Origin: a virus
Length of the DNA stretch: 44,200 bases
Strand: one strand, 5' to 3'
Virus record (IMG/VR): IMGVR_UViG_3300045988_113957
Location: 1 to 44,200 of that record
Below the pieces are notes generated by a model. The model worked only from the letters and a program-made list of their open reading frames with translations, searched no databases and was not told where the DNA came from. Numbering within the stretch: position 1 is the stretch's first letter; each line of letters begins with the position of its first letter. Positions 7,710 to 37,322 of this stretch are shown piece by piece. A program made the translations under genes and the position numbers.

Positions 7710-8723
7710 ATGGCAGATACTTTTGCTACAAGTTTTGCGGTGCTTAACTATAGCGGTATGCTTTTCAATAAAGGCAATACCCGCACACCGCTTTCATCTA
7801 TCATAGGCTCTCGGGCAAAGACTACCAACCATGTAGAATTTGTCACCGGACAGAGCTACACTTCGGGCGGCGGTACTCAGCCTGCAATTTCTGAAACCGC
7901 CTCACTTACCGCACCTGATGCTACTGTCGTTACCCGCACTCAGCAGACTAACGTCACTCAGATTTTTCAGGAAACCATCGGTATTTCGTATGCCAAACAG
8001 TCTAACATGGGAACGCTCAGCGGCGTAAACATTCAAAATCAGAGCGCAAATCCGCTTAACGAACTCGACTTCCAGGTTGCGGCAAGAATGCAGAAAATTG
8101 CGGCGGATATTGAAGCAACGTTTGTTGCGGGTGCTTACAGCAAGGCAACTACCGATGCAACCATAAACAAAACCCGTGGTCTTACCACCGCAATCACCAC
8201 CAACGTAACGGCAATGTCAAATAAGCCCCTCGGTCTTTGGGACGTTGCCGATATGGTGAAAAAGATTTACGGACAGAATGCACCGACTAACGGTCTTGTT
8301 CTGTGGTGTGATGCAACCACCATGTTCCAGCTCAATGCCGATGCAGTACAGAACGGTCTTACCGTCGTTCCCGCCGCAAGGGAAGTTAACGGCATTCAGC
8401 TTTCAAGCGTCGTAACCCCGCTCGGCGTTGTTTATCTGTATCTCGGCGAATACCTGCCCGCAGGTACTGCGCTCTTGCTGAATCTTGACGTGATTGCGCC
8501 CGTATTCCAGCCTGTACCCGGCAAGGGCAACTTCTTCCTTGAACAGCTTGCAAAGACAGGCGCAGGCGAAAAGTATCAGATTTTCGGACAGGTCGGTCTT
8601 GACCATGGTCCGGAATGGTATCACGGCAAGTGGACTGGTATCGCAACCACCTTCACCAAGCCCGAATACAGCAGGACTGTTTACGTTGCAGGCGGCAATA
8701 TCACCACCACTACGTCGGCTTAA
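7710..8723 (+). CDS. Major capsid protein
   Basis: 337 aa; RBS AGGAG; position directly after the scaffold gene; composition and length fit an HK97-fold capsid protein. Confidence 0.7.
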   Translation: MADTFATSFAVLNYSGMLFNKGNTRTPLSSIIGSRAKTTNHVEFVTGQSYTSGGGTQPAISETASLTAPDATVVTRTQQTNVTQIFQETIGISYAKQSNMGTLSGVNIQNQSANPLNELDFQVAARMQKIAADIEATFVAGAYSKATTDATINKTRGLTTAITTNVTAMSNKPLGLWDVADMVKKIYGQNAPTNGLVLWCDATTMFQLNADAVQNGLTVVPAAREVNGIQLSSVVTPLGVVYLYLGEYLPAGTALLLNLDVIAPVFQPVPGKGNFFLEQLAKTGAGEKYQIFGQVGLDHGPEWYHGKWTGIATTFTKPEYSRTVYVAGGNITTTTSA

Positions 8724-8748
8724 GTAATCTCAAGGCAGGAGGCAAGAT

Positions 8749-9066
8749 ATGATGGAACAGCACGAAAAGGAAGCAATGGTAAACGCATTATGCGGAGAAA
8801 CTGACCCTAACCAGCTTTCCGCATACCTTGCCCTTGCCGCTGACAAAATACTGAACAAGCGGTATCCGTTCGGACGTAAAGGGGGCGAAACAGTTCCTTC
8901 AAAGTATGAAACACTGCAATGTCAAATTGCGGCATATCTGCTTAACAAACGTGGCATGGAAGGACAAACAGGACACACCGAAAGCGCAACGACTATGCAG
9001 TTTGAAAGCGGAGATGTGCCTGATTCCATGCTTGACGCAGTAATACCGACAGCGAGGATTTTCTGA
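8749..9066 (+). CDS. Head-tail connector / DNA-packaging protein (gp15-like position)
   Basis: 105 aa; RBS AGGAGG; segment LSAYLALAADKILNKRYPF resembles gp6-like connector proteins. Confidence 0.5.
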   Translation: MMEQHEKEAMVNALCGETDPNQLSAYLALAADKILNKRYPFGRKGGETVPSKYETLQCQIAAYLLNKRGMEGQTGHTESATTMQFESGDVPDSMLDAVIPTARIF

Positions 9067-9416
9067 TGAGACTTGCACAGCGTTTACAGCAGACGGTTTA
9101 CTACTCGATGTATTTAGGACGTAAGCCTGTTGCCGTTGACGGTCTTTACACAGGCGAGTACACCATCGAGTATGCTGACCCTGCACCTATCGGTGCAAGC
9201 GTAACCCCTGCAAAGGGCGGCACGGAAGCGGAAATGTTCGGCTTGAGCGAAGACTATGACAAAATAATCACAGTTGAGGGCGCAAGCTGGGCGTTTAACG
9301 AAGCAACACGGTTCTGGATTGACGCAAAGCCCACAGAACCCGCTGATTATGCCGTTGTGCGTGTTGCACAGTCGAAGAACCTTACTGCCGTTGCCGTACG
9401 AAAGGTGAAGCAGTGA
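9066..9416 (+). CDS. Head closure / head-tail adaptor protein
   Basis: 116 aa; ATGA-type coupling; call rests on synteny. Confidence 0.45.
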   Translation: MRLAQRLQQTVYYSMYLGRKPVAVDGLYTGEYTIEYADPAPIGASVTPAKGGTEAEMFGLSEDYDKIITVEGASWAFNEATRFWIDAKPTEPADYAVVRVAQSKNLTAVAVRKVKQ

Positions 9417-9934
9417 ACATACGGTTCGAATTAAGCAAAGACTCGATAAAAGCGGCAGTAAATGCCTTGAAAGCGTATCAAAAGCGTGTTGAAAAATACG
9501 AACGTGATTTAAGGCTTGCGGTTGCACACAGGCTTGCCGAATACGCTCAACAGCTTGCCGATTCCGCCGAGTACGGTTCGGTTATTGACAACGAAGGCAA
9601 CGTGCATTCGCTTCCGTTCACGTTTGACGTTTCGGTTGCGGATGACGGAAGGCTTGTTGTTGCGCACGGCGATGAGGTTGCGTTTATCGAGTTCGGCGCA
9701 GGTGTGTACTACAACGGAGCTGTCGGAACGTCACCACACCCGAAAGCAGGAAGCCTGACAATCGGCTCATACGGCAAAGGAAAAGGCGCACAGGAAACAT
9801 GGGCATACATGGACGAGAACGGCGAATTTGTTTACACTCACGGTACAATTGCGCAAATGCCAATGTACAAAGCTTTACTGTCTATCGCCCAACAAGTCCC
9901 TCGTATTGCAAAGGAGGTTTCGGAATCATTATGA
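9413..9934 (+). CDS. Neck / tail-joining protein (HK97 gp10-like position)
   Basis: 173 aa; overlapping start; call rests on synteny only. Confidence 0.4.
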   Translation: MNIRFELSKDSIKAAVNALKAYQKRVEKYERDLRLAVAHRLAEYAQQLADSAEYGSVIDNEGNVHSLPFTFDVSVADDGRLVVAHGDEVAFIEFGAGVYYNGAVGTSPHPKAGSLTIGSYGKGKGAQETWAYMDENGEFVYTHGTIAQMPMYKALLSIAQQVPRIAKEVSESL

Positions 9935-11193: not shown

Positions 11194-11639
11194 GTTTTTC
11201 CGATTCTGACACAGACGGGGGTGAAAAAACCGTCCCATGGAACATACAACTTGTTCGTGAAACTTTTCCGTATCTTCTCTCTATCGGAATGACGGCGGAG
11301 CAGTACTGGGATGGCGATTTTACCCTCGTTTCGTCATATTTGGAAGGACATAAGCTTGCGCTTCAGCGTAAATACGAAAATGATAACTGGAACGCATGGC
11401 TGCATGGTCGGTACACCTATGAGGCACTGGGTGTTGCGCTGTCAGGAATCTTCTCCAAGCACAGCAGCGCAAAATACCCCGATAAACCGTACGAAATGCA
11501 AAACGATGAACGCAAAGAAAAATGCAAGCCCAAGCCCAAAGATAAAACGGAGTTTTACAAAAGCTGGGATGAACTTGCAGAGCAATACGAAGGAAAGGAG
11601 GACATGTCTTGTCTGTATCGATTGATGAACTTATCATAG
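10840..11639 (+). CDS. Tail assembly chaperone, -1 frameshift fusion product (GT-like)
   Basis: The -1 frame is open from 11139 to 11639. The heptamer G GGA AAC at 11160-11166 lies in the zero frame 27 nt before the stop. Confidence 0.65.
11160..11166 (+). promoter_or_regulatory. Programmed -1 ribosomal frameshift slippery heptamer GGGAAAC
   Basis: X XXY YYZ pattern in phase with the 10840 frame (gaG GGA AAC); compare lambda G/GT GGGAAAG. Confidence 0.65.
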
Positions 11640-14600
11640 GCATAGATTCTGACGCTTCGAAAGCGTTACAAGGCTTAAAATCGATGGTGGATACGCTCAA
11701 TCAAGTATCCGCACCGACAGAAACGGCGGTTAAATCGCTGAAAAAGCTAAAGAAAGTGCTTGAAGCGATAAACGGATTAAGCGTTAACGTCAAAGGGCTT
11801 TCAGAGCTTACGAACGCACTCAAAGAGATGTCGGAGTTTGATATTTCTAACCTTAAAAAACTTCCGAATGCGTTAAAAAAACTGTCTGAGGTTGACATTG
11901 CTTCACTTGTTCCGCAAATTCAGGCACTCGCTGACGCTATGAGACCGCTGTCGCAAGTCATGAAAGATATTGCGGCGGGGTATGCGGCACTGCCAAAGAA
12001 CATACGGGCTTACGTTAATGCCGCCAATAGTGCGCAATCAGCAACACAGAAGAAACTGCTCACGTTTGCGCAATTGTACATTAAACTGCGCTTGATTTTC
12101 AATGTGTTCCGCACCGCAGTAAACGCCGTCTCTGAGTGGGTTGACGCTGCGAACACCTACATTGAGGACATGAACCTGTTCAGCGTTGCAATGGGGAAGT
12201 ACGCTGAATCAGCACGGAATTATGCGCAAGAAGTTGCAAACGTAATGGGCATTGACCCGGGCGCATGGATGAGGTATCAGGGCGTATTCCAAACCCTTGC
12301 AACAGGCTTCGGTGTTGCGGGCGACCGTGCCGCTGTAATGAGCCAACAGCTCACACAGTTGGGCTACGACATATCCTCGTTCTATAACATTGACGTTGAA
12401 GCTGCAATGCTGAAACTGCAAAGCGGCTTGAGCGGTGAACTTGAACCGTTGCGCCGTATAGGTTATGACCTGTCGCAAGCAAGACTTGAAGCTGAGGCGC
12501 TGTCACTGGGTATTGAAAAGAATTTCAGCGATATGACGCAAGCCGAAAAGGCATACTTGCGTTATTACGCTATCCTTACACAGGTTACTCAAGCACAGGG
12601 CGATATGTCACGCACACTTGACGCTCCGTCAAATCAGCTCCGAATACTGAAAGAGCAAGCGGCACAGGCGGCTCGTGCGCTCGGCGAAATCTTCATTCCC
12701 GCATTGAACGCAATCCTGCCGTATGCAATTGCCGTTATGCACGTTATTCGCGACCTCGCTTCCGAAATTGCGGCGGCTTTCGGGTTCGAAATGCCCAAGG
12801 TTGATTACTCCGACCTGTCAACATCGGTTAGCATAACCGACAATCTTTCTGACGGAATGGAAGACGTTGCGGACGGAATCGACCATGCAAACACATCGGC
12901 GAAGAAATTCTCCCGCACACTTGCAGGGTTTGACCAATTAAACATTGTCGGCAGTGTGTCAGGCGGTGGAGCAGGCGGCGGCGGTGCAAGCATCGACACT
13001 TCCGGCGGCGGGTTCGACTGGAACAAGTTGCCGCTTCCGACCTATGATTTTATCGGAGATTCCGTATCCGAAAGGGTTGCGGCGATTGAAGAAAAAATCA
13101 AAGGCGCAATTCCGACAATAAAGTTTTTCGGAACATTGCTTGCAGGCGCACTTGCTACTGTCGGCATAATTAAGCTAATCAGTAAATTTAAAGAATTTAT
13201 CAAACTGCTTAAAACTTCCTCAACGGCGGCAAAAACGCTTAAAACGGCTCTCGGCATCGGGTTGATGGTTACGGGCTTAACTATGGCTTTTGAGGGTGCG
13301 AAAAAAATCGGCGCAGGCGAAGCCGAATTAAAGGACTACATCAAAACGGCTATCGGCTCGGCACTCGGAATTGCGGGCGGTTTGCTCATTTTCGGTACTG
13401 GACCCGTTGGTTGGACAATCGGAATCCTTGCGGCACTCACCGTTGTTATAGCAGGTATTGCGATAGGCGCAAAAGAGAAGCTTGATAAACAGGTTGCCGA
13501 ATGGTTCTTTACGGCAGGTGACAACACAATTTCGGTTGATATGCTTGCCGACAGCTTCGATAAAGCCCTTTCGAACATTAACGGCGTGAATGGCGCACTC
13601 GACAGCGGCATTAAGAAGTACAAAGAGTACTCCGACAATGTCGATACAACCCGAACCGAGCTTGAGAACCTTATAGGCGACTTGCAGGTTGTTTCGCCCG
13701 ATGACCCCGAAGTCGCAACCCTTGTTGACAACATTATTGCTAAGTTTAACGAACTGCTTGATTACAGCCGCCTTGAGCTTAAGGAAATAGGCATGAACAT
13801 CAAGCGTTCCCTTGCAGGCTCAATGGGTGAAGTCGTTGCGGCAATGGGCGGTGACGTTACAACCTACATGGCACTTGTTGACGAAATGGTCAACGGCGGT
13901 GTGGAATCGTTCGAAGACATTACGCAACAAATCGAAGAGCTGAGTGTACAGTATAAAGCTGGAACAATCAGCCTTGATGAGTTTTCGCAACAGTCTTCCG
14001 CATTGTACAGTAAGTTACAAACGCTTGTGGGCGATGGCAGCGGCAAGATACTGAACCCGCTTTCCTCTGCCGAAGCTTTGTATGGCAGTATAGATTGGGA
14101 AAACAAAGACCAAATCACAGGCTTCTTTGAACATATCACCGAATCAATCGGCGAATCCAAAGCACTTGCGGAGCAGGAACTTAAGGATTACAATGCAATG
14201 CTTGACGACCTCATGCCTTTCGCAAGCACCCCCGACCAGGTTAATGCCATTAAGGGGCTTAGAACGGCGGCGAACGAAGCTTACCAGAACAGGCTCACGC
14301 AGATAGGCGATGAAACCACAGGCTTAGGCGCGCTCATTGAAGAAGACATAATCCGAAAATATCAGGAAATGGTCACTGCTGCGTGGCAAAACACGGAGGG
14401 CGATTATAGGTTTAAAGCAATTGCGGTCAAGAACGCCGCAAAGAGCTTCAACGACCAGTTTGGCAAACCGTTTCTTGAGGAACTTGAAAAACTCTACGGC
14501 AAAGAGTTTGACGAGGATAACCCCTTGAGGAAAATGCTCGAACACGTTATAAGCCCCGCTGAAATCAATCTCAATACGGACAACCTTTTAACGTGGCTTA

Positions 14601-15334
14601 ACGACGAGTACATCACTCCCGCACTCGGAAGAGCTACATCGCGTGTAACGGAATGGCGAAACGGTGATTTTATTGATGCACTTGCAGCGGCGGACGAAGC
14701 TGGCGCAATTGAGTTCAACGAGTTATTCAATGAACATTACATCAACCCTGCACTCACCAACGCCACAGAGCGTGTACAACGTTGGAAACGCAAGGATTTT
14801 CGTGACGAAATTGCAAGCATTGACGAATTTGTTGCAGGGGACGCAAGAGCGGCAGGAACAACCATAGGTACAGAAGTTGCCAACGGCTTGTCGAGCGGGC
14901 TTGAAACGGCAACAGAAGCGTTTAACAAGTGGTTCAACGCACTGTCGCCGAGAGTGAGATACATCATGGGCGTACTCGTAGGAGCGGGAGGCGGCAGCTT
15001 GTCACTTCCTGGCATGAACATTCCCGCATACGCAAGCGGCGGGTTCGTTCCGAAAGGCGACTTGTTCCTTGCTAATGAAAACGCTCCCGAATTTGTCGGC
15101 AACATCGGCAACAGAACGGCTGTCGCAAACAACAACCAAATCGTTCAGGGCATTGCAAGCGGCGTACAACACGCAAACGCCGAACAGAACATGCTGCTAA
15201 GGGAAGTGCGTGATTATCTCCGTGCTTTACTGAACGTCCAAGGCGACAATACTATTGTGTTTGCGCCTTCCGTTGAGGCGGGACGCGTTGTGTCACGTTC
15301 GCTTAAAATGTATGAACAATCGAAAGGATATTAA
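11609..15334 (+). CDS. Tail tape measure protein
   Basis: 1,241 aa; TTG start 8 nt after AAGGAAAGGAGG; TP901-type core-like region MNLFSVAMGKYAESARNYAQEVANVMGIDPGAW; hydrophobic central block and a Gly run. Confidence 0.85.
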   Translation: MSVSIDELIIGIDSDASKALQGLKSMVDTLNQVSAPTETAVKSLKKLKKVLEAINGLSVNVKGLSELTNALKEMSEFDISNLKKLPNALKKLSEVDIASLVPQIQALADAMRPLSQVMKDIAAGYAALPKNIRAYVNAANSAQSATQKKLLTFAQLYIKLRLIFNVFRTAVNAVSEWVDAANTYIEDMNLFSVAMGKYAESARNYAQEVANVMGIDPGAWMRYQGVFQTLATGFGVAGDRAAVMSQQLTQLGYDISSFYNIDVEAAMLKLQSGLSGELEPLRRIGYDLSQARLEAEALSLGIEKNFSDMTQAEKAYLRYYAILTQVTQAQGDMSRTLDAPSNQLRILKEQAAQAARALGEIFIPALNAILPYAIAVMHVIRDLASEIAAAFGFEMPKVDYSDLSTSVSITDNLSDGMEDVADGIDHANTSAKKFSRTLAGFDQLNIVGSVSGGGAGGGGASIDTSGGGFDWNKLPLPTYDFIGDSVSERVAAIEEKIKGAIPTIKFFGTLLAGALATVGIIKLISKFKEFIKLLKTSSTAAKTLKTALGIGLMVTGLTMAFEGAKKIGAGEAELKDYIKTAIGSALGIAGGLLIFGTGPVGWTIGILAALTVVIAGIAIGAKEKLDKQVAEWFFTAGDNTISVDMLADSFDKALSNINGVNGALDSGIKKYKEYSDNVDTTRTELENLIGDLQVVSPDDPEVATLVDNIIAKFNELLDYSRLELKEIGMNIKRSLAGSMGEVVAAMGGDVTTYMALVDEMVNGGVESFEDITQQIEELSVQYKAGTISLDEFSQQSSALYSKLQTLVGDGSGKILNPLSSAEALYGSIDWENKDQITGFFEHITESIGESKALAEQELKDYNAMLDDLMPFASTPDQVNAIKGLRTAANEAYQNRLTQIGDETTGLGALIEEDIIRKYQEMVTAAWQNTEGDYRFKAIAVKNAAKSFNDQFGKPFLEELEKLYGKEFDEDNPLRKMLEHVISPAEINLNTDNLLTWLNDEYITPALGRATSRVTEWRNGDFIDALAAADEAGAIEFNELFNEHYINPALTNATERVQRWKRKDFRDEIASIDEFVAGDARAAGTTIGTEVANGLSSGLETATEAFNKWFNALSPRVRYIMGVLVGAGGGSLSLPGMNIPAYASGGFVPKGDLFLANENAPEFVGNIGNRTAVANNNQIVQGIASGVQHANAEQNMLLREVRDYLRALLNVQGDNTIVFAPSVEAGRVVSRSLKMYEQSKGY

Positions 15335-20412: not shown

Positions 20413-20688
20413 ATGAATGACGCAGTACTTACAGCCCTGCTTTCGCTTGCGGGGACGGCGATAGGCTCAATAGCGGGCATTCTTGCGTCAAACAAGTTGA
20501 CGAATTTCAGACTGAAATCGCTGGAAGACCGTGTTTCTCAACATAACCACCTTATTGAGCGCATGTATGGAGTTGAAGACCGTGCTAAGGCGAATCAACA
20601 CAGAATTAACAGGATAGAAGAAAGGCTTGAATTGCATGAAAACAAACTGGACAATTTGGCTCAAAGCCGCAACCATCAGAGCGATTAA
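20413..20688 (+). CDS. N-terminally membrane-anchored coiled-coil protein (lysis accessory?)
   Basis: 91 aa; TM segment VLTALLSLAGTAIGSIAGILA followed by a heptad-like charged helix; starts 2 nt after the endolysin stop. Confidence 0.5.
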   Translation: MNDAVLTALLSLAGTAIGSIAGILASNKLTNFRLKSLEDRVSQHNHLIERMYGVEDRAKANQHRINRIEERLELHENKLDNLAQSRNHQSD

Positions 20689-20887
20689 GACAGCGGCACA
20701 AACGGCTTGCGGTGTGCTTGCGACTTCCGCATTGCTGTCCGAAGTCAACTGGGCTGTTGTCGGCTCATCTGCGGCAATGGCGGCTATCGTCAGTCTCTTA
20801 ACGTCACTTGCGGGGCTTCCCGAGGTGAAGATGCAAGAGCGTGAGCGATTGCGAGTAAACAAAAACACGCCCCCCGAGGACGCCTAA
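20636..20887 (+). CDS. Holin (two TM helices)
   Basis: MKTNWTIWLKAATIRAIKTAAQTA...SLLTSLAGLPE pattern resembles r1t / phage_holin_1-type holins; charged C-terminus; overlaps the upstream ORF by 53 nt. Confidence 0.6.
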   Translation: MKTNWTIWLKAATIRAIKTAAQTACGVLATSALLSEVNWAVVGSSAAMAAIVSLLTSLAGLPEVKMQERERLRVNKNTPPEDA

Positions 20888-20904
20888 TTGGCGTTCTCTT
20901 TTTT
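20878..20904 (+). terminator. Rho-independent terminator after the lysis cassette
   Basis: GGACGCC-taatt-GGCGTTC (one G-U) followed by TCTTTTTT. Confidence 0.7.
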
Positions 20905-21132
20905 ATGCAAAATATGTCAAATTCAGAATTAAACAGTATATCAAATACTAAAATAATCACTTTGTTAAAGGAATATTGTCACGATTCTGTCGCTCGTGAC
21001 ATGGCTGTCATGCGGCTGGTTGAAGGCTCAACGTATATTGACATTGCACATATCTTTAACGTATCTCAATCGACAGCTCGCCGCAAGTGCATTAAGGCTG
21101 AAAATGCCGTCAAAATGCACATAAATGAATGA
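20905..21132 (+). CDS. Mini HTH protein resembling sigma-70 region 4 / LuxR-type HTH
   Basis: ARDMAVMRLVEGSTYIDIAHIFNVSQSTARRKCIKAENAVK matches the R-x-V-x2-L-x3-G-x-(S/T)-Y-x2-IA-x4-S-x-(S/G)-T pattern. AT-rich gene with no obvious RBS. Confidence 0.5.
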   Translation: MQNMSNSELNSISNTKIITLLKEYCHDSVARDMAVMRLVEGSTYIDIAHIFNVSQSTARRKCIKAENAVKMHINE

Positions 21133-21183
21133 GCCTACTACGTTGCTGTATTATAATTAAATAAACAAGCAATGGAGGTGCGC

Positions 21184-21606
21184 ATGAACCCTTACGGATA
21201 TAATGTGCCGAACATGTACGGCAACAACACGTTCACACCGCAAATGCCGTACAGCCCGCCTGTTACGCAGCCCCAGCTTCCGTTTGGACAACAATCCAAC
21301 CTGATATGGGTACACGGCATACAAGGCGGCAACGCATACAAGATGGGCGCAAATCAGTCTGTTATCCTGCTTGATGAGACCGCTCCGCTTGCATTTTTTA
21401 AGCGCACGGACAGTGCAGGGTATGCGACTATGGACATTTACGATTTAACCCCTCACAAAGAATCAGAAACAGATTTACAATCTATTGAACAACGTTTAGC
21501 AAAATTGGAGGCACGATTAAATGAATCCGATACTGCAATCTCTAAGCCAAAACAACCCGCAAATGGCAAAAATGCAAGAAATGACGGGCATGATGCAACA
21601 GTATAA
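21184..21606 (+). CDS. Hypothetical protein with a P/Q/Y/N-rich N-terminus and a small beta domain
   Basis: GGAGGtgcgcATG; 140 aa; the core SNLIWVHGIQGGNAYKMGANQSVILLDETAPLAFFKR recurs in Firmicute phage proteins of unknown function. Confidence 0.5.
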   Translation: MNPYGYNVPNMYGNNTFTPQMPYSPPVTQPQLPFGQQSNLIWVHGIQGGNAYKMGANQSVILLDETAPLAFFKRTDSAGYATMDIYDLTPHKESETDLQSIEQRLAKLEARLNESDTAISKPKQPANGKNARNDGHDATV

Positions 21607-21748
21607 GCAATTCCGTGCGGCAATGGCGGGGAAAAACCCGCAGGCGTTGCTCAACATGCTAATGCAAAACGGCAGTGTATCCCAACAGCAGATGCAACAG
21701 GCGCAGACCCAAGGACAAATTTTTATGCAGGCTATGCGTAATCAGTAA
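21521..21748 (+). CDS. Gln/Met-rich small protein (75 aa)
   Basis: RBS GGAGG 9 nt upstream; overlaps the preceding ORF by 86 nt in another frame. Confidence 0.45.
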   Translation: MNPILQSLSQNNPQMAKMQEMTGMMQQYKQFRAAMAGKNPQALLNMLMQNGSVSQQQMQQAQTQGQIFMQAMRNQ

Positions 21749-21793
21749 CCGACTTTAACAAGTCCATATGGATTATCATCCATCCCAGTGCAA

Positions 21794-21813
21794 CAGACAC
21801 GGAAACGTGTTTG
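21794..21813 (+). other. Hairpin capped by a GAAA tetraloop
   Basis: CAGACACG-gaaa-CGTGTTTG (8-bp stem, one mismatch), 24 nt upstream of the ATG at 21837. Confidence 0.5.
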
Positions 21814-21836
21814 AATAAATCAAGGATGGTTTTTTT

Positions 21837-22436
21837 ATGGACAACAACTTCACTCCTGCCGATTATGCGGCAATGAACGGCGGCTTTGGCGGCGGCAATC
21901 AGGAATGGCTCTGGATTATTCTGTTTTTCCTGTTTGCAGGCGGCGGAAACGGCTTTGGCGGCAACCGTAAAGACTGCGCAACCACCGAGGACGTGCAGAA
22001 CCAGTTCAATTTTGCGGCTCTTGAGCGGCAGAACGGCGAGACTGTTGCGGCGGTTGCAAACAACACTACCGCTGTTACCAACGCAGTAAAAGACAGCGAA
22101 ATCAGGCTCCAGCAGGGTATCAACGCACTTGCGGGCATGGAACAGAATATTATCGGCAATACGTCCAGATGCTGCTGTGAAACCCTTCGTGGCATTGACG
22201 GTGTGAACTACAATGCCGCAATGAATACCGCTGCAATCAATGCAAACACCACAGCGCAGGTACAGAAGATTCTTGACGCAATCACGGGCAACAGAATGGC
22301 GGATATGCAGAACCAGATTAACCAGCTCCAGCTCCAGTCACAGCTTTGCGGTGTGGTTCGCTACCCTACCAATACGACCTACTCGGTTAACTCTCCCTGT
22401 TTCTGCGGTAACGGCGGTTGCGGTTGCGGATACTAA
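21837..22436 (+). CDS. Gly-flanked single-TM protein with an N/Q/A-rich ectodomain and a Cys/Gly-rich C-terminus
   Basis: NGGFGGGNQEWLWIILFFLFAGGGNGFGGN (YjcZ-like tiny-TM look), an internal CCC, and the C-terminal CFCGNGGCGCGY. Confidence 0.6.
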   Translation: MDNNFTPADYAAMNGGFGGGNQEWLWIILFFLFAGGGNGFGGNRKDCATTEDVQNQFNFAALERQNGETVAAVANNTTAVTNAVKDSEIRLQQGINALAGMEQNIIGNTSRCCCETLRGIDGVNYNAAMNTAAINANTTAQVQKILDAITGNRMADMQNQINQLQLQSQLCGVVRYPTNTTYSVNSPCFCGNGGCGCGY

Positions 22437-22457
22437 TCAACTTTGACTTAATCGGCG

Positions 22458-22491
22458 GGTATCATTTTCGTGGCAACACGAAATTGATACC
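22458..22491 (+). other. 15-bp stem hairpin capped by a GCAA tetraloop
   Basis: GGTATCATTTTCGTG-gcaa-CACGAAATTGATACC (one central mismatch); no U-tract; lies in the 5' UTR of 22515. Confidence 0.6.
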
Positions 22492-22514
22492 TTGCACCAT
22501 ATCGGAGGTAAACT

Positions 22515-22946
22515 ATGTCATGTTCGAATAATTTCAGGAAATCAGCAGTAAGCACGGTAAACACAGCGGCGCAGACCGTAACGGCAAACGCAACCCCGCT
22601 TTCCCTGCTCGGCAGTGTATGTTACAACAGCGGCTGTTCGCTGTCCGCAAATGCAAGCGGCATCAACATCAAAAGCAGCGGGCTTTATACCGCCTCAGGA
22701 AGCGTCACAATCACTCCGACAGCGGCAGGGACTGTTACTGTATACCTTGCGCTAAACGGCGTTACACTGCCTTGTAGCGTGCGTCAGCAAACGGTTGTGG
22801 CGGCATCACCTATCACCATAAACACCTCGGCAATTGCGTTCGGTGCAGGGGCTTGCGCTTGCAACTCGTCAACCCTGACGCTTGTTGTCTCGGGTGCAGC
22901 CGGAACGGTTGACTATGTTACGGCAGGGGCGGTACGCCTCGCATAA
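22515..22946 (+). CDS. Beta-rich A/T/S/G/V protein resembling BclA C-terminal (C1q-like) or DUF3992 (Ena-like) domains
   Basis: 143 aa; RBS GGAGG; Cys at positions 3, 36, 41, 87, 114 and 116; alternating beta-strand pattern (GLYTASGSVTITPTAAGTVTVYLALNGVTL). Confidence 0.45.
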   Translation: MSCSNNFRKSAVSTVNTAAQTVTANATPLSLLGSVCYNSGCSLSANASGINIKSSGLYTASGSVTITPTAAGTVTVYLALNGVTLPCSVRQQTVVAASPITINTSAIAFGAGACACNSSTLTLVVSGAAGTVDYVTAGAVRLA

Positions 22947-22960
22947 GAAAGGCGGAAGCA

Positions 22961-23530
22961 ATGGCGGCAAGTGAGATACTGTCTAAAATAGCAACACATC
23001 AGGTAAAAGGCATAATGTTTCACGCTCAAATGGCGGACTATTTCGACTTTTTGAACCTCCGTGGATTCAAACGGTTGCATGAGTATCAGTACATGAGCGA
23101 ATCAGCCGAATATCGGAAGACTTGCAGGTTTTGCATAAACCATTGCTACAAGCTATGCAAAATCGGGCAAACGGATGACCCACACGTCATACCTGACAGA
23201 TGGTACAGCGCACGGCGGAGTGAGGTGGATACTAACACGAAGCGCAGGGCTGTCGTTGAAGCATTTGAGCAGTATGTATTGTGGGAGCAAAACACACTGC
23301 AACTTTACGAACAGTGCTATTCCGAACTTGTTGCGGAAGGCAAAATTGCAATAGCGGATTATGTCAAGAATCTCATTGCAGACGTTGCGGATGAACTTAA
23401 GCACGCTTCCCGCTTGCGCCTGGAACTTGCAAACACTGACGGCGATATTATACACGTTTATGACCTGCAAGAGGCTATGCACGAGGATTACAAGCAAAAA
23501 ACGAGGGTAGTCGGCGTGATACTCTCTTGA
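22961..23530 (+). CDS. Ferritin-like four-helix-bundle protein (non-canonical metal ligands)
   Basis: 189 aa; HQVKGIMFHAQMADYFDFLNLRGFKRLHEYQYMSESAEY and EQYVLWEQNTLQLYEQ resemble ferritin helices A/B and C. Confidence 0.45.
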   Translation: MAASEILSKIATHQVKGIMFHAQMADYFDFLNLRGFKRLHEYQYMSESAEYRKTCRFCINHCYKLCKIGQTDDPHVIPDRWYSARRSEVDTNTKRRAVVEAFEQYVLWEQNTLQLYEQCYSELVAEGKIAIADYVKNLIADVADELKHASRLRLELANTDGDIIHVYDLQEAMHEDYKQKTRVVGVILS

Positions 23531-23555
23531 CGGCGCATTTTGAACGTGCTATAAT
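23527..23555 (+). promoter_or_regulatory. Consensus promoter overlapping the stop codon of 22961..23530
   Basis: TTGACG, 17 nt, TGcTATAAT. Confidence 0.7.
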
Positions 23556-23561
23556 TATCAC

Positions 23562-23775
23562 TGTCAGACAGGATGAACCTCTTACCTCGCAGTCAGCGAC
23601 GGCGGGCGGGCATGATAACACGTTCGCCGTCGCAACTCCTTCTTGTCTGTCTTGAGTAAAAATGGTGCGCATTATGCGCTGTACTATATATCGCAACGGG
23701 GTTTTCAGCCTCCTTCATTTTTATTTCCTCCTTCGCAAAGGGAGCTGCTTGCTGGTCACGGGCGGCTCTCTTTTG
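23562..23775 (+). ncRNA. Candidate ~215-nt structured non-coding RNA or leader
   Basis: Bracketed by the promoter at 23527 and the terminator at 23738. Perfect 9-bp stem GCGACGGCG/CGCCGTCGC (23596-23604 / 23625-23633) nested in CAGACAGG/CTTGTCTG. Two CCUCC motifs at 23709-13 and 23727-31. No + strand ORF with an RBS. Confidence 0.4.
23593..23718 (-). CDS. Candidate 41-codon ORF antisense to the putative RNA
   Basis: MKEAENPVAIYSTAHNAHHFYSRQTRRSCDGERVIMPARRR. Its TIR GAAGGAGGAAATAAAAATG nearly matches those of 36184 and 2524. Only a weak promoter candidate exists (TTGCAC-17-ATTAAT, 23848..23820). Confidence 0.3.
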   Translation of the reverse strand: MKEAENPVAIYSTAHNAHHFYSRQTRRSCDGERVIMPARRR

Positions 23776-23808: not shown

Positions 23809-23838
23809 TTGACACGCACATTAATGCGGGTGTATAAT
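23809..23838 (+). promoter_or_regulatory. Early (recombination/replication operon) promoter
   Basis: TTGACA, 18 nt, TATAAT; the spacer contains the palindrome CATTAATG. Confidence 0.65.
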
Positions 23839-30304: not shown

Positions 30305-30821
30305 GACATGGCAGCCTGTAAAAAGATTCCCAGATTACGAAGTTTCGAACCTTGGGCGTTTTCGGGAAAAGGCGACAGGAAAAGCGGTAAAGGTGTATAA
30401 AGGCTGGTATGTACACCTTATGCGCAACGGCATTCTCTACGCACGGAGTGCCGCAAAGCTGGTTGCGCAGGTTTACGTTCCAAACCCCGACCCGAAAAAC
30501 AAAAAACGGGTCGAAAGATACAACCGCAAGTTTACAGACATTCGGGCGGAAAACTTGTATTGGGCAAACTGGGCGGAGCGGGACTGTCCAGACAAAGACA
30601 ACCCGATTAAGCAGGCACAAAAAAAGCTTATTGACAAAAAGTATGCCGTTATCGGCACGTCACTGGAAGACGGACACGAAATACATTTCGAAAGCACACA
30701 GGCAGCGGGAAGAGCAGGATTTAGTTTCCAATGCGTGTCTCGCTGTTGCAGGGGCGAAAGCAAAACACACAAAGGCTACACATGGAGAAAGGCGGAGAGA
30801 GACAATGACAAAAATTCTTGA
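30297..30821 (+). CDS. NUMOD4/HNH_3-like protein with a decayed catalytic motif (copy 2)
   Basis: WQPVKRFPDYEVSNLGRF; LVAQVYVPNPDPKNKKRVERYNRKFTDIRAENLYW lacks the His; C-terminal ..SKTHKGYTWR. Confidence 0.55.
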   Translation: MVETWQPVKRFPDYEVSNLGRFREKATGKAVKVYKGWYVHLMRNGILYARSAAKLVAQVYVPNPDPKNKKRVERYNRKFTDIRAENLYWANWAERDCPDKDNPIKQAQKKLIDKKYAVIGTSLEDGHEIHFESTQAAGRAGFSFQCVSRCCRGESKTHKGYTWRKAERDNDKNS

Positions 30822-31311
30822 CAGCGGCAATCGTACGGAGTTTGAGACAGGCGCAGTGCGTGACGTTCAGCAGGGCAAAGGGCGGTTCGATTTAATGCCG
30901 CTGGACATTATGAGCAAAGTGTTTGAGATTGAGTTTGCAGACGAATTTGAGGAAGGCAGCATTGCGGATGTGCTGAAATCTATAGCGGTTTTCCAGCAGA
31001 CAGGCAACGAAGGCTGGCTGTGTATTGCGATAGCGCATTACAGTCAGGCAGTGCATGTTTCCCTTCCAACTCTCATGCTTGACGTTGCAAAACATTTCGA
31101 AAACGGTGCTTTGAAATACGGAGAACACAACTGGAAAAAAGGAATTCCTGTCAGCCGTTATATTGATTCAGCGGTTCGGCACTTGATGAAAGATTGCGAC
31201 TGCGAGACGGACGAAGACCACGAAGCCGCATTTGTGTGGAACTGCATGTGCGCCGCATGGACGATGAAACATAAGCCCGAGATGGACGATTACACGCAAA
31301 AGTGTGACTAA
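30805..31311 (+). CDS. DUF5664 / dATP-dGTP diphosphohydrolase-like (MazG-related) protein
   Basis: DSGNRTEFETGAVRDVQQGKGRFDLMP...GALKYGEHNWKKGIP..SAVRHL...DEDHEAAFVWN pattern. Only the last 168 codons of ORF 30409..31311 are used. Confidence 0.55.
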   Translation: MTKILDSGNRTEFETGAVRDVQQGKGRFDLMPLDIMSKVFEIEFADEFEEGSIADVLKSIAVFQQTGNEGWLCIAIAHYSQAVHVSLPTLMLDVAKHFENGALKYGEHNWKKGIPVSRYIDSAVRHLMKDCDCETDEDHEAAFVWNCMCAAWTMKHKPEMDDYTQKCD

Positions 31312-33482: not shown

Positions 33483-33738
33483 CCAGTATATTGACGTGCT
33501 GACGGAAGGCGAGTGGTGGGATTACATTCCTGACGATTCTTCCGATATGGAACTGCGGCTGCTGGAAAGGGCTGTAAAGGAAATGGCGGGCATTGCGTCC
33601 CGACTGACGTATTGCGGCGAATGTGAGCATTTTAACCGCATAACGAACACACTCGGCACATGCGAACGATGCACCGAAGGCACTAAAACCGAGGATGATT
33701 TTTGTTCGAACGGCGAAGCAAAGGGGGAAGAAAAATGA
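33469..33738 (+). CDS. 4-Cys module protein (CGECEHF..GTCERC..EDDFC)
   Basis: RBS AAAGGAG; 89 aa. Confidence 0.5.
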   Translation: MKITDQYIDVLTEGEWWDYIPDDSSDMELRLLERAVKEMAGIASRLTYCGECEHFNRITNTLGTCERCTEGTKTEDDFCSNGEAKGEEK

Positions 33739-34700
33739 GCGTAAATTGGCATGAGGACAACAGGAAGCCGCAAGAGGCGGGGAGTTACTATACGATAATC
33801 GAGGATGTTGCAACACACGATGTGGAAGTCGGCATAACAACGTACGATGAATCGAGACAGCAATGGCTGATAGATGAGCAATGCGGAAGGCAAGTCAAAG
33901 CGTGGGCAAAAATTGAAAAGCCGTGTATGCCCGAAAATCCGTACGTTCCCGAGGAATTTCGCAAACGGCTGATGACGTACATGGGGCGGACAGTTGGAGA
34001 AAAAAGCTTGAATACGTTGAAAAGCGAAGAACAAAAAGAGAAAGAGCTGAAAGAGAAAATCGATGCGCACAGCAAATGGCTTCGCAACGCGGGTGGTGAG
34101 AGACTGAACCTTGACGGCGCAGACTTGCAGGGGATGGACTTAAGCGGCGTAATTTTTTGCAAAGCAAGTCTTAACGGCACAAATTTTAGAGGGGCTACTC
34201 TTCGTGAGACAAATTTTAGAGAAGCTGAGCTAAAAGGAGCTAATTTTAGCGGTGCGCATATCAAGAACGCCACCTTCGCCGATGCCAACGTGCGCGATAC
34301 TGTGTTTGAAAATGCGGAAATTGCCGGTGCGGATTTTACAGGTGCGAAACTCAACTGGGCGGATTTTAAAAACGCAAATTGCGAAAACACAAACTTTGCA
34401 GGAACGAATTTATCCCATGCAAGATTCGTCAACGCAAACTGCCGTCATGCTTATTTCGAGGACGCAAAGGGATGCGCAAACTTTAAAGATGCCGACATTG
34501 CAGGCGTAATTCTCACATCAGCAATGGAGACACTTTACGGCGGCTGGATAACTGAGACGCAAGTGACAACAGCATTAGAGCCAATCCTTGTAAGCGGGCT
34601 GCACAGCCCCCATCTAACCAAAAAAATAAAAAGAAAGCTTCGTGTACTGGAAAAATTCATTTCCCGCCACGAAAAACAAAGGAGAAAGGCAGAGGAATGA
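33735..34700 (+). CDS. Pentapeptide-repeat protein 1 (DUF551-like N-domain, coiled coil, about 26 pentapeptide repeats)
   Basis: ATGA overlap. Repeats ADLQG MDLSG ... ANFSG AHIKN ATFAD ANVRD ... ADFKN ANCEN TNFAG span about 34104-34511. Confidence 0.8.
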   Translation: MSVNWHEDNRKPQEAGSYYTIIEDVATHDVEVGITTYDESRQQWLIDEQCGRQVKAWAKIEKPCMPENPYVPEEFRKRLMTYMGRTVGEKSLNTLKSEEQKEKELKEKIDAHSKWLRNAGGERLNLDGADLQGMDLSGVIFCKASLNGTNFRGATLRETNFREAELKGANFSGAHIKNATFADANVRDTVFENAEIAGADFTGAKLNWADFKNANCENTNFAGTNLSHARFVNANCRHAYFEDAKGCANFKDADIAGVILTSAMETLYGGWITETQVTTALEPILVSGLHSPHLTKKIKRKLRVLEKFISRHEKQRRKAEE

Positions 34701-34921
34701 AAAAAATAGAGGATAGATACGGCGGATACAGCCGTGGTAATGCGGCTATCCTTGTCGGGAATTTGCCGGGCAGGAAAAAACTGTCGCTGCTTGTCCGTGG
34801 AGACGACCCCGAAGATAATGCCGCTTGCATTCTGTACAACGCCGCATATTTCAGAAGCGATGAAGATGCTGAAAGGTTTTTGGAGGCTTTGAGAATAGTG
34901 ATAGGAGATGAAATAGAATGA
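34697..34921 (+). CDS. Hypothetical protein (74 aa)
   Basis: ATGA overlaps at both ends. Confidence 0.45.
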   Translation: MKKIEDRYGGYSRGNAAILVGNLPGRKKLSLLVRGDDPEDNAACILYNAAYFRSDEDAERFLEALRIVIGDEIE

Positions 34922-34922
34922 A
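34901..34922. repeat. 22-bp junction repeat ATAGGAGATGAAATA(G/T)AATGAA, left copy
   Basis: Matches 35675..35696 at 21 of 22 positions; contains the RBS and ATG of ant. Confidence 0.85.
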
Positions 34923-35685
34923 TGAAATTAAAGTGTTTAACAACGCAGAGTTTGGCAAAATCCGAACCCTGAACAGAGACGGCGAACCGTGGTTTGTCGG
35001 CAAAGACGTGGCAACGGCATTGGGATACAAAGACAGCGTGAATGCGCTAAAATCCCATGTATCCGAGGAAGATAAAGGTGGGTGGCGGATTGCCACCCAA
35101 TACGGAGAACGTGAAGCGGTAATAATTAATGAATCTGGACTTTACAGTCTGATTCTGTCAAGCAAGCTGGAAGGTGCAAAACGGTTTAAACGTTGGGTTA
35201 CGGCAGAAGTGCTTCCGTCAATCCGCAAGAGCGGCGGATACATAGCGGGGCAGGATGAGATGAGCGACACGGAACTGCTTGCGAAGGCACTGTTAGTTGC
35301 GCAAAGGCAGATTGAACAGCGCAATGCGCAGATTGCGGAAATGCAGCCTAAGGCACTCTTTGCGGACGCAGTAGCGGCATCCCACACGTCAATCTTGATT
35401 GGTGAGCTTGCAAAGATACTCAAGCAAAACGGAGTTGACATCGGTCAAAACCGACTTTTCGAGACGCTTCGACAGCAGGGGTACTTGATACGGCGCAACG
35501 GCACGGATTATAACAGCCCGACACAAAGAGCGATGGAACTCGGCTTGTTTGAGGTAAAAGAATCAACCGTTGGCAACCCTGACGGCTCGGTGCGTGTTAC
35601 TCGCACAACCAAAGTGACAGGCAAGGGACAGCAGTATTTCATAAACAAGTTTTTAGGAGGCATTAAGGATGTTAATAGGAGATGA
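34918..35685 (+). CDS. ant: Antirepressor (BRO-N plus KilAC/ANT domains)
   Basis: N-terminal FNNAEFGKIRTL..GEPWFVGKDVATALGY...INESGLYSLILSSKLEGAKRFKRWVT; C-terminal ANT-type ALFADAVAASHTSILIGELAKIL. Confidence 0.8.
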   Translation: MNEIKVFNNAEFGKIRTLNRDGEPWFVGKDVATALGYKDSVNALKSHVSEEDKGGWRIATQYGEREAVIINESGLYSLILSSKLEGAKRFKRWVTAEVLPSIRKSGGYIAGQDEMSDTELLAKALLVAQRQIEQRNAQIAEMQPKALFADAVAASHTSILIGELAKILKQNGVDIGQNRLFETLRQQGYLIRRNGTDYNSPTQRAMELGLFEVKESTVGNPDGSVRVTRTTKVTGKGQQYFINKFLGGIKDVNRR

Positions 35686-35967: not shown

Positions 35968-36043
35968 GAGAGCATACACTGCGCCGAGCGATATATCAAG
36001 CGTGGGATGCTGTTGCAGTGTGAATTACAAGGAATAAGCAAAG

Positions 36044-36071
36044 GGCGCAATTCGGGATTCTGGGTTGCGCC
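36044..36071 (+). terminator. Weak hairpin / possible terminator
   Basis: GGCGCAA-(14 nt)-TTGCGCC followed by TAAAATATATT (poor U-tract). Confidence 0.3.
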
Positions 36072-36103
36072 TAAAATATATTGTTCAAAAACGCAAAAAA
36101 CGC

Positions 36104-36132
36104 TTGACGGCAATGGAGGGTGGTGGTATAAT
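36104..36132 (+). promoter_or_regulatory. Consensus promoter
   Basis: AAAACGC-TTGACG, 17 nt, TGgTATAAT. Confidence 0.75.
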
Positions 36133-36183
36133 AAGTACCATCAAGTGAGGCGGACACATAAAAACGCAGAAGGAGAAATAAAA

Positions 36184-36879: not shown

Positions 36880-37322
36880 TGAAAAAAATTTACACAGAAA
36901 AAATTCATCAATCGACCCGCTTCGGGCTGGTTGATGAAGACGGACGCAAAACCCCTTGCGGGACGCTGTGGTCGGACGCACAGCGGGAGACGTTTAAACG
37001 CCTGCTTAATGGCGGGAACAACCTCGCCTTTATGGTGTGGGGCGGTGACGGCGCAAAGAAATCCGCCTTATGGGCGAAGTGGACGGACGCTCGGGGGCAA
37101 AAGAAACTCTATAAGCTCGGCACGTTCGGGCAGAATGCACCGATGGAAGAGTTTGTAGAAGTCGCAATCGCAACGGCGCACGACAACAAGTGTTGCGCAA
37201 CATGCGGACACTTTGAACGTGTTAACAGGCACGGACAGATAAACTGCGGCATGGGCGTATGCACGCTCATAAACAGGGAGAGATACTGCTTGTTTAAATG
37301 CGGGGATTGGAGTATGCAATGA
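36876..37322 (+). CDS. Hypothetical protein with a C-terminal Cys module (CCATCGHF...C..C....C..C)
   Basis: GGAGGctgaATGATG; 148 aa. Confidence 0.5.
   Translation: MMKKIYTEKIHQSTRFGLVDEDGRKTPCGTLWSDAQRETFKRLLNGGNNLAFMVWGGDGAKKSALWAKWTDARGQKKLYKLGTFGQNAPMEEFVEVAIATAHDNKCCATCGHFERVNRHGQINCGMGVCTLINRERYCLFKCGDWSMQ

Follow-up and report, generated by a model that had tools for sequence, protein, structure and literature searches.

A six-gene block follows the holin gene of a complete phage genome

The window analysed here is the entire 44,200-nucleotide stretch of the IMG/VR virus record IMGVR_UViG_3300045988_113957, and our subject is a block of six genes, named G1 to G6, that lies between its lysis genes and its early genes. 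An exact 55-bp terminal repeat (bases 1–55 equal bases 44146–44200) is the signature of circular assembly, therefore the window is a circularly assembled, complete phage genome of about 44,145 bp. The original prediction for this locus had described a terminator-insulated accessory module of six genes without virion or replication signature and with a spore-coat or surface-fibre flavour. All six open reading frames (ORFs) are present as first described (Table 1), and a GGAGG-type ribosome-binding site stands ahead of each of G2 to G6. Because all six products are conserved as proteins in other genomes, the ORFs are genes and not chance ORFs, and the description as an accessory module lacking virion or replication signatures was borne out.

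The block begins at a hairpin with a 9-bp stem containing six G-C pairs (20876–20898), followed by U6 at 20899–20904. Its folding energy is -16.4 kcal/mol (z = -4.06), and none of 200 shuffled sequences was equally stable. The holin stop codon TAA (20885–20887) sits in the hairpin loop and the G1 start codon ATG (20905) is immediately 3' of the U-run, without a Shine-Dalgarno sequence. The hairpin is kept in the close relatives L001–L007. Among 88 loci with the same genes (see below), 13 have an upstream terminator, 6 of those being close relatives, compared with 6.6% of control windows; downstream terminators occur in 18 of 85 loci, about threefold enriched, and none was found after G6 in the window. 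The strong hairpin and U-run that had been placed after the holin gene therefore stand, at a slightly larger extent, but the insulation holds for this lineage only and is ruled out as a general property. At the other end, the six co-directional ORFs run to 23530, up to a promoter that starts at 23527. Within the block, G3 begins in another frame before G2 has ended, and 86 nt (21521–21606) are shared by the two; in distant relatives (L075, L077 and L079) 38–59 nt are shared. The conserved overlap suggests translational coupling of the two genes.

Table 1. Genes and other features of the window and of related loci (window coordinates unless a locus or accession is given; aa, amino acids)
Feature	Position	Strand	Remark
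G1, 75-aa stand-alone protein, probable sigma-70 region-4-type HTH (helix-turn-helix)	20905–21132	+	Putative cassette regulator
G2, 140 aa	21184–21606	+	144 aa from ATG 21172
G3, 75-aa Q/M-rich helical protein	21521–21748	+	Repeated NPQ motifs
G4, 199-aa bitopic membrane protein (predicted)	21837–22436	+	
G5, 143-aa BclA-C/C1q/TNF-type jelly-roll protein	22515–22946	+	
G6, 189-aa ferritin-fold protein	22961–23530	+	
Intrinsic terminator-like hairpin and U6	20876–20904	+	Overlaps holin stop codon, abuts G1 start codon
Lysin, 291 aa	19536–20411	+	
XhlA-like protein	20413–20688	+	
r1t-type holin	20627–20887	+	Pfam 2.5e-13; PHROG holin 7.7e-17
Sigma-70 promoter TTGACG-17-TATAAT	23527–23555		Strong, with TG
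Sigma-70 promoter TTGACA-18-TATAAT	23809–23838		Perfect consensus
Late operon	From terminase at 3083 to lysis block	+	Via portal, tape-measure protein (11609–15334) and tail genes
Early genes	After 23530		Gam-like, Erf-like, replication initiator, DnaC-like loader, antirepressor, Dam, D5 primase
Antirepressor, Bro-N/KilAC	34918–35685		
DUF7841 gene, examples	L009: 7081–7569; L144: 8446–8901		
c23 gene, examples	L077: 6781–7008; L142: 9104–9343		
Locus L144	QAMT01000004.1, 206496–222927		Phascolarctobacterium metagenome-assembled genome

The genes form a portable cassette with a fixed order

With G4 as the query, IMG/VR yielded 147 relatives that were confirmed, and 80 loci were kept. BLAST comparison found G2 in 64, G5 in 51 and G6 in 36 of the 80, always in the order G2-(G3)-G4-G5-G6. 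Hidden Markov models (HMMs) made from alignments of the cassette proteins were run over 136 loci, comprising the 80 viral loci and 56 genomic ones, and G4 had partners in the same order in every one of them (80/80 viral, 56/56 genomic). G2 adjoins G4 in 120 of the 136 loci; G2, G3, G4 and G5 are found together in 51 and all five genes in 39, most of the other loci being cut by contig ends. The original prediction had named a failure to co-occur beyond this genome as grounds against itself, and what was observed is co-occurrence in fixed order throughout the 136 loci.

The full architecture can be written as [region-4 HTH]-G2-G3-G4-(G5 or c10beta)-(c23)-(G6 or c7half)-(DUF7841). The optional c23 gene, of about 80 codons, lies between the slot-5 gene and the ferritin-type gene, and its product combines a hydrophobic N-terminus with a coiled coil, similar in plan to XhlA and BhlA. 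A gene for a DUF7841 protein (Pfam 1e-21) stands 3' of the cassette in about 40 loci, often ahead of a reverse integrase gene; it is not in the window.

In this window the cassette comes after the holin gene; in other loci it directly follows Amidase_2 or GH25 endolysin genes, and in at least 28 it is followed by a reverse-oriented tyrosine integrase gene. It also lies between fibre genes (Laminin_G_3, Gp10_C) and the holin gene in L137, after a YadA_head/Gp10_C fibre gene in L140, where the genes for NrdD, NrdG and DNA polymerase III alpha run towards it, between DUF4376 and Mtd_N fibre genes in L146, and immediately upstream of the TerL, portal and capsid genes in L142. In L144 the full r4-G2-G3-G4-G5-DUF7841 set is at a prophage–chromosome junction within a 545-kb Phascolarctobacterium contig. 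Throughout, the cassette is co-oriented with the late genes. It is thus portable, occupying differing places in unrelated phage backbones and at least five contexts. It is also dispensable, as near-identical relatives carry partial deletions of it: L004 is without window positions 22416–23383 (G5 and most of G6) and L006 without 21630–21890 (the 3' end of G3 and the 5' end of G4), each at 93% nucleotide identity or more. Two marks of a moron were found, presence/absence polymorphism in close relatives (L004, L006) and variable position. The block had been assigned to the classic moron slot of lysogenic conversion; this agrees with the at least 28 related loci where it lies between late genes and a reverse integrase gene, but the fibre-gene and TerL contexts show that the slot is not the only one.

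The neighbourhood of lysis genes, in the window and in many other loci, is what one would expect if the products were accessory lysis or egress factors that act with the holin and endolysin in a role like that of XhlA, XepA and BhlA of Bacillus prophages, and the layout shared by G4 and c23, a hydrophobic N-terminus and then a coiled coil, resembles XhlA and BhlA. However, elsewhere the cassette is far from lysis genes (before the terminase gene, or after fibre genes with no lysin near), genes for a lysin, an XhlA-like protein and an r1t holin are already present in the window, G4 was unmatched by holin or XhlA models, and the ferritin and BclA_C members have no known lysis role. We give such a lysis function very little credence.

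G4 is the most constrained cassette member

Among the cassette proteins G4 has the highest pairwise identity, and the others diverge in step with it. An acidic N-terminal tail is followed by a Gly-flanked hydrophobic segment at about residues 24–35 and then by a predicted N/Q-rich helical hairpin, whose two helices (56–119 and 125–167) are rich in N, Q, T and A. A CCC motif at 112–114, just before the hairpin turn, was described as invariant, and CC(C) is present in 86 of 89 non-redundant members; the motif NRMADMQNQI is invariant. The protein ends in a variable Cys/Gly tail, CFCGNGGCGCGY, with Cys at 188, 190, 195 and 197. G4 matched phrog_16490 (3e-11) and had no match in Pfam, NCBIfam (E ≤ 1) or the PDB. 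The Gly-flanked transmembrane (TM) segment, the internal CCC and the Cys tail were thus as predicted, but the YjcZ-like N-terminus was not: with no NCBIfam family at E ≤ 1 and no Pfam match, YjcZ was rejected and the likeness is compositional only. In public metagenomes the G4 profile finds more than 7,816 clusters of homologues, defined at 90% identity; among 120 of these that were listed there was no Pfam domain, and the sole source name was 'hypothetical protein'.

The helical hairpin was also compared with A-ENA 'sporesilk', a protein of 101 aa without a TM segment and with isopeptide cross-links; the defining features of A-ENA are a soluble alpha-hairpin of about 100 aa, an N-terminal lock and Lys-based isopeptide bonds (PMC13111695). 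G4, with 199 aa, a TM segment and 3 Lys only, is set apart by the described features and was rejected as an A-ENA relative (PMC13111695).

G1 to G3 comprise a putative regulator and two low-complexity proteins

The likely start of G2 is ATG 21184, which has GGAGG upstream and yields 140 aa. Its P/Q/Y-rich composition, noted originally, is evident in the first 40 residues (P8, N6, Q5, Y4). This prion-like P/N/Q/Y-rich N-terminus is followed by a conserved domain of about 55 aa (consensus I.V.G..GA.AY.M.PNS.V.LLDE..P...K.TDGAGY) without a recognisable family, a short trimer-type coiled coil and a disordered tail. G2 matched phrog_21718 (8e-12), and its weak matches to YadA, Lpp and Sugarporin_N concern the coiled coil only. 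The family counts 870 representatives at 50% identity, nearly all of them stand-alone proteins of 90–190 aa. An apparent repetition of the G2 domain in the 2,183-aa protein P0298 was a compositional false positive caused by a T/N-rich repeat protein.

G3, matched by phrog_22984 (8e-10), indeed has the Q/M-rich character first ascribed to it, with 19 Q and 12 M among 75 residues. It is possibly an STI1/ubiquilin-like client-binding chaperone: sub-threshold Pfam matches to XPC-binding recur in 5 of 18 family members (best 0.006) and to UBQLN1 in 2 of 18, and RAD23 appeared in the PDB search at E = 5–7. As an STI1 domain G3 was not accepted; the recurring sub-threshold matches are a lead and not a finding.

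The sigma-region-4-like HTH originally seen in G1 is probably correct. G1 matched the Pfam model HTH_Tnp_4 just above the cutoff (1.9e-6; 27.8 bits, cutoff 27), Sigma70_r4 (0.005) and Sigma70_r4_2 (0.012) below it, and the PHROG sigma factor family at 7.5e-4, and its positional equivalents in other loci matched Sigma70_r4_2 at up to 1.2e-5 or, in L144, GerE. An iterated HMM of this protein type, whose consensus resembles a sigma-4 domain of the extracytoplasmic function (ECF) group, scores G1 at 1.1e-16, a match by construction because G1 was among its three seed sequences. Of 103 loci searched with this HMM, at least 40 have a region-4 HTH ORF immediately before G2, suggesting that a G1-type regulator belongs to the unit, though its sequence drifts.

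G5 carries a BclA-C/C1q-like domain and G6 a ferritin fold

G5 begins with MSCSNNFRKSAV and has neither GXX repeats nor a collagen stalk; by reading, there is no signal peptide. The window protein by itself had no Pfam match. The family profile, in contrast, matched cerebellin C1q (6.8e-9) and the C-terminal domain (CTD) of BclA (3twi, 5.6e-4, covering 21–136 of 138), 12 of 18 family members matched Pfam BclA_C (PF18573; best 9.4e-8), and a neighbour gene in L140 is annotated BclA_C. By analogy with these proteins G5 would be a compact trimeric beta jelly roll. The profile also reached the PRD1 P5 spike heads (1yq5, 6q5u), at a non-significant E of about 1. The prediction of a BclA-C/DUF3992-like beta protein with terminal cysteines was thus correct in its BclA-C part only: DUF3992 was absent from Pfam matches at E ≤ 1 of the 18 G5 members and from those of the c10beta members tested, and the cysteines of G5 are Cys3 and C114xC116, terminal at the N-terminus and with no C-terminal Cys. 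PDB profile searches with G5 or c10beta alignments returned no Ena chains, and both proteins were rejected as DUF3992/Ena proteins. Nor is G5 a full-length BclA orthologue, since the collagen-like GXX stalk and the exosporium-anchoring N-terminal segment are not present.

In other phages the G5 slot is filled by c10beta, a beta-rich protein with MACNC..C as its start and CC at an internal site. That c10beta is homologous to G5 was rejected at hhalign probabilities of 1–2%; it is an analogous slot-filler with no detectable homology.

For G6 the ferritin signal from sequence is marginal (E 0.6–0.9; Pfam Ferritin E = 0.88). The AlphaFold2 (AF2) model, however, has a predicted local distance difference test (pLDDT) score of 95.9 and a pTM of 0.91, and shows a four-helix bundle with a long B-C loop and a short fifth helix. 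Foldseek matched it to the ferritins of A. fulgidus, T. maritima and P. furiosus (3kx9, 1s3q, 1vlg; E 3e-4, TM 0.75/0.86) and, in BFVD, to a four-helix-bundle protein of a gut Siphoviridae phage (1.4e-7, TM 0.80/0.89), so that the ferritin-like assignment, made beforehand, is confirmed at the level of the fold. In the family H21 and E41 are invariant and E47, E109 and E145 are at least 90% conserved (alignment A7), E47 being invariant in alignment A2. With E17, Y24, E50, H53, E94 and E130 of E. coli FtnA as the reference ferroxidase centre, the E17-equivalent is Q/M/L, the Y24-equivalent is the invariant His21 and the H53-equivalent is E/S/Q; aligned to A. fulgidus Ftn, G6 keeps only E47, E109 and E145 of the ligands. 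Ferroxidase site A thus appears degenerate and the centre incomplete.

The slot of G6 may instead hold c7half, a two-helix half-ferritin of about 100 aa with an invariant E14, Y21 and E46xxH49 (an E/Y/ExxH motif), which matched Rubrerythrin (6.9e-5) and, at 2.6e-5, helices one and two of BfrB and bacterioferritins; its sole encapsulin-related PDB match was EncB (7s5k, E = 0.5). Homology of c7half to G6 was likewise rejected (hhalign probabilities 1–2%), leaving an analogous slot-filler with no detectable homology. In the 110 loci whose downstream sequence is long enough, G6 occurs in 43 and c7half in 28, the two are never found together, and 39 loci lack both. The mutual exclusion of the two indicates that a ferritin-superfamily function is selected in this slot, but not obligatory.

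A slot filled in 71 of 110 loci by one of two different ferritin-superfamily members, never both, would fit an iron or oxidative-stress auxiliary module for strict anaerobes, in which the ferritin-type protein sequesters or oxidises iron, the Cys-rich membrane protein buffers or senses redox, and the infected cell or lysogen survives oxygen exposure better. The retention of E14/Y21/E46xxH49 in the half-ferritin and its Rubrerythrin match, the invariant CCC motif and the finding that all carriers are gut or rumen anaerobes point the same way. On the other hand, 39 of the 110 loci have no ferritin-type gene, G6 is lost in L004, its site A looks degenerate, and G2, G3, G5 and the fixed order are left unexplained. 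Such a module is improbable as an account of the whole cassette.

Carriers are Firmicutes phages, including those of hosts not known to sporulate

Bacterial genomes were searched in one scan with two short exact G4 peptide patterns. The matches fall mostly in Oscillospirales, Lachnospirales, Christensenellales, Peptostreptococcales and Erysipelotrichales, and include the isolates R. flavefaciens FD-1, on contig ACOK01000103, and Lachnospiraceae X68, on QXWW01000035. Labels of Bacteroides, Treponema or Thermoguttaceae seem unreliable because they come mostly from contigs of phage size or smaller, or from matches at contig ends, in bins of metagenome-assembled genomes (MAGs). This pattern-based scan gave no Bacillus locus, and its sole Clostridium-labelled locus was in an 'uncultured Clostridium sp.' MAG. 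Carrier bins also include the labels Mogibacterium, Selenomonadaceae and Acholeplasmatales, which are not known to sporulate, and Phascolarctobacterium is a diderm that is not known to sporulate. Overall, the carriers are tailed phages and prophages, in very large number, whose hosts are Firmicutes of the gut and rumen.

This host range bears on the flavour originally suggested, in which lysogenic-conversion products would become part of the host's spore coat, exosporium or spore appendages. Many carriers are Clostridia, at least 28 loci have the cassette beside an integrase gene, one product has a BclA_C-type domain, and ferritin-superfamily, Cys-rich and Q/Y-rich proteins recur in coats, where CotJC, Coat_F, ExsY/CdeC and GerQ are recurrent components. 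The products show no apparent signal-peptide-like N-termini, as is the case for coat proteins assembled in the mother cell, and the regulator is an HTH protein of 75–80 aa that matches GerE in L144. These parallels are set against carriage by Phascolarctobacterium (545-kb contig) and by the Mogibacterium, Selenomonadaceae and Acholeplasmatales bins, against the scarcity of Bacillus and Clostridium in the pattern scan, and against the presence of the cassette in a complete genome where no integrase was found (the window), in large phages that encode DNA polymerase III alpha and NrdD, and among fibre genes. Neither a collagen stalk nor an exosporium-targeting motif is present, the DUF3992 and YjcZ models were unmatched, and the main text of a survey of gut-phage sporulation genes mentions no coat, exosporium, bclA, cotJ or ferritin genes. 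The spore-coat flavour is therefore weakly supported, and we consider it highly improbable.

The cassette may encode a membrane-anchored complex acting at the level of the cell

We tentatively prefer, as one possibility, that the cassette is a portable accessory operon that builds a membrane-anchored complex with a cell-level function of the exclusion or protection type. Its occurrence in unrelated backbones and in both monoderm and diderm Firmicutes, its non-structural positions and its own regulator together favour a membrane-associated function at the level of the cell. By reading alone, with no predictor run, a signal-peptide-like N-terminal segment is apparent in no member, and a hydrophobic segment occurs only in G4 and, in relatives, in c23; the proteins therefore probably meet in the cytoplasm. 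G4, the most constrained member, is presumably the scaffold and membrane anchor, and its short acidic N-tail suggests an N-out, C-in topology.

A working model can be outlined from these features. Assembly would take place in the cytoplasm, with G4 as the base and the cytoplasmic membrane as the anchoring site, the N-terminus of G4 being out and its C-terminus in, as its short acidic N-tail suggests. G2 and G5 might be trimeric peripheral subunits and G3 a holdase for hydrophobic or low-complexity segments, and the task of the ferritin-type subunit would be iron or redox handling, perhaps on behalf of the cysteine motifs. The operon might, in this genome, be read at the end of the late transcript, through read-through of the 20876–20904 hairpin, after which G1 would boost or time it. 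The pay-off would be a change in the membrane or envelope of the producing cell, of the exclusion or protection type, the complex being neither a spore layer nor a core part of the virion.

Several points weigh against this preferred model. Its assembly scheme draws on co-occurrence and sequence features. The AF2 model of G4 shows helices with a pLDDT of 49.6 only, too poor for use as a fold-search query, and K/R residues, about 0.5 on either side of the TM segment, do not favour one topology. The tail cysteines of G4 do not covary with the N-terminal Cys of the slot-5 protein (Fisher p = 0.29), and the idea that these two regions are paired through disulfides or metal was rejected on that ground, and the STI1-like match of G3 is sub-threshold only. 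No sigma-70 promoter for G1 or G2 was found in the window, and the GC content of the cassette (0.47–0.52) is that of the genome. PADLOC gave 0 families for all six proteins at E ≤ 0.1, so that a known anti-phage defence system was rejected. Finally, the repeated embedding among tail-fibre genes favours a virion role. In the large phage L148 the cassette is even split, with G2-G3 at 1195–1795 about 6 kb upstream of G4-G5-c23-G6 (8085–9737), and the gap holds a gene for a 1,419-aa Peptidase_S74 tail fibre as well as minus-strand dUTPase and RuvC genes.

In the corresponding alternative the products form a non-essential virion appendage or adsorption module, with G4 as fibre or stalk, G5 as a TNF-like head, G2 as a trimeric adaptor, G3 as a fibre chaperone like T4 gp57A, and the ferritin-type protein supplying metal to Cys-coordinated sites along the axis of the fibre; T4 gp37 and spike tips contain iron. 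Besides the Laminin_G_3, Gp10_C, YadA_head/Gp10_C, DUF4376, Mtd_N and Peptidase_S74 contexts, the constant co-orientation with late genes, the trimer-type elements in G2 and G5, the weak matches to PRD1 P5 spike heads (E about 1) and the apparent want of signal peptides, which fits cytoplasmic assembly, are all consistent with an appendage, and dispensability suits optional fibres. But a strongly hydrophobic Gly-flanked segment such as that of G4 is atypical of fibres, the virion backbones of the carriers are unrelated, and the cassette also lies at non-structural places (post-lysis, pre-terminase, beside integrase genes, at a prophage edge), often with an HTH regulator of its own; no PHROG structural annotation was found. 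Moreover, G5 is 96% identical where G4 is 97% identical and is no more variable than its neighbours; that it is not hypervariable argues against a receptor-binding tip, and a fast-evolving tip of this kind was rejected. An appendage, the main rival of the preferred model, is therefore unlikely in our view, although it deserves attention.

A more specific construction, which we consider speculative and also unlikely, would be a novel membrane-anchored fibre or lattice of G4 hairpins, linked through Cys or metal, with a TNF/C1q-like cap, a ferritin-type iron donor and an STI1-like chaperone.

Other features of the genome and of related loci

The lysin of the window had no Pfam match to a catalytic domain, and its weak matches to PHROG endolysins concern the C-terminal part only. 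The XhlA-like ORF and the r1t-type holin ORF share 62 nt (within 20413–20887). Between the two sigma-70 promoters that follow the cassette lie about 250 nt without a convincing ORF and with a terminator-like hairpin at 23698–23712, and the first early gene starts at 23884; the segment 23527–23883, where late and early genes meet, could serve as a regulatory leader or encode a small RNA.

No integrase was found in the window by Pfam on large ORFs and by the integrase HMM from related loci, serine recombinases not being specifically searched; the 300-aa ORF at 30409–31311 was examined with the tyrosine-integrase HMM only. Two pentapeptide-repeat proteins (33702–34700 and 36007–36879; Pfam 3e-29 and 1e-23) are encoded on either side of the antirepressor gene, near which there are also genes for a PAPS-reductase-like protein (37298–38179), a Dam methylase (40739–41548) and a D5-type primase (41286–42950). 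A 94-nt imperfect direct repeat with 83% identity (1092–1185 and 2251–2344) lies inside the minus-strand gene block 378–2683, among whose proteins the only family match is phrog_4534.

In L144, a gene for a 3,603-aa polyvalent protein (SLT, PBECR1, ResIII helicase, methyltransferase, LPD38) lies upstream of the cassette, and chromosomal TonB/ExbBD and iron-type ABC transporter genes follow directly downstream.

Novelty and significance

PHROGs already groups G2, G3 and G4 as families with no assigned function, and these three of the five core proteins have no other family. The only GenBank phage relative is one unannotated 6.7-kb record (MT837517.1), and a literature search found no paper on the cassette, on DUF7841 or on BclA_C in phages. 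PADLOC, GenBank phages and the literature thus agree with the earlier statement that the set matches no described phage system. The cassette is real and abundant, and we could not find it described before.

A conserved, portable operon of five or six genes is a sizeable and well-defined piece of viral dark matter, and it is carried by phages whose hosts are the dominant butyrate- and fibre-degrading Clostridia in the human gut and the rumen. Because the gene set, the alternative slot-fillers, natural deletion variants and cultured carriers are now defined, the cassette has become testable. If it acts on the envelope, it bears on phage–host dynamics such as exclusion and lysogen survival; if it forms a virion appendage, it represents a new optional fibre type. 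Among the products, the C1q/TNF-like and ferritin-like ones might come into contact with the animal host. Were the fibre or lattice construction true, phage-built appendages of cells or virions would gain a new class, made by thousands of phages of gut Firmicutes and exposing a C1q/TNF-like face to the mammalian gut after lysis.

Comparison with known systems

Single members of the cassette resemble known proteins in fold. The G5 family profile aligns nearly over its full length with the BclA CTD (PF18573; 3twi) and with the C1q domain of cerebellin, of the C1q/TNF class. Unlike BclA, G5 is a stand-alone, phage-encoded protein of 143 aa with no GXX stalk or exosporium-anchoring region; it has a conserved N-terminal Cys and an internal CC/CxC, and the window protein is below Pfam detection. 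The modelled G6, its B-C loop and fifth helix included, superposes on 24-mer ferritins (Ftn) of prokaryotes, namely those of A. fulgidus, T. maritima and P. furiosus, but the ligand positions of G6 are altered and its gene always comes last in a five-gene cassette, beside non-iron proteins. With the encapsulated ferritins, c7half shares a two-helix half-ferritin plan and an E...Y...ExxH half-site.

As a set, the products recall exosporium and coat assemblies such as BclA-ExsFA-ExsY and CotJA-CotJB-CotJC, in which C1q-like, Cys-rich, Q/Y-rich low-complexity and ferritin-superfamily proteins are likewise combined, apparently without signal peptides. The homology found is nevertheless confined to the BclA_C and ferritin folds, the context is a late lytic operon, and Mn_catalase, CotJB, Coat_F and DUF3992 were not among the Pfam matches of any cassette member. 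The PRD1 vertex, with P16 and the TNF-like trimeric P5, offers a working analogy for a membrane-anchored partner that carries a TNF-like head. However, the phages that carry the cassette are tailed, have HK97-type heads and lack an internal membrane, the P5 matches are not significant and there is no collagen-like linker.

In genome organisation the cassette can be compared with phage morons, lysogenic-conversion cassettes and exclusion genes beside receptor-binding genes, namely lambda bor and lom, phi80 and N15 cor, and T5 llp. The cassette differs from them in having five or six genes in a conserved order where morons have one or two, in a composition equal to that of the genome, in that no promoter of its own was identified in the window, and in occurring also in genomes without a detected integrase. 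Like morons, it is self-contained, co-oriented with the late genes, variable in position and dispensable, with a product that appears to be membrane-anchored, and it often lies between the lysis genes and attP-int or beside fibre genes.

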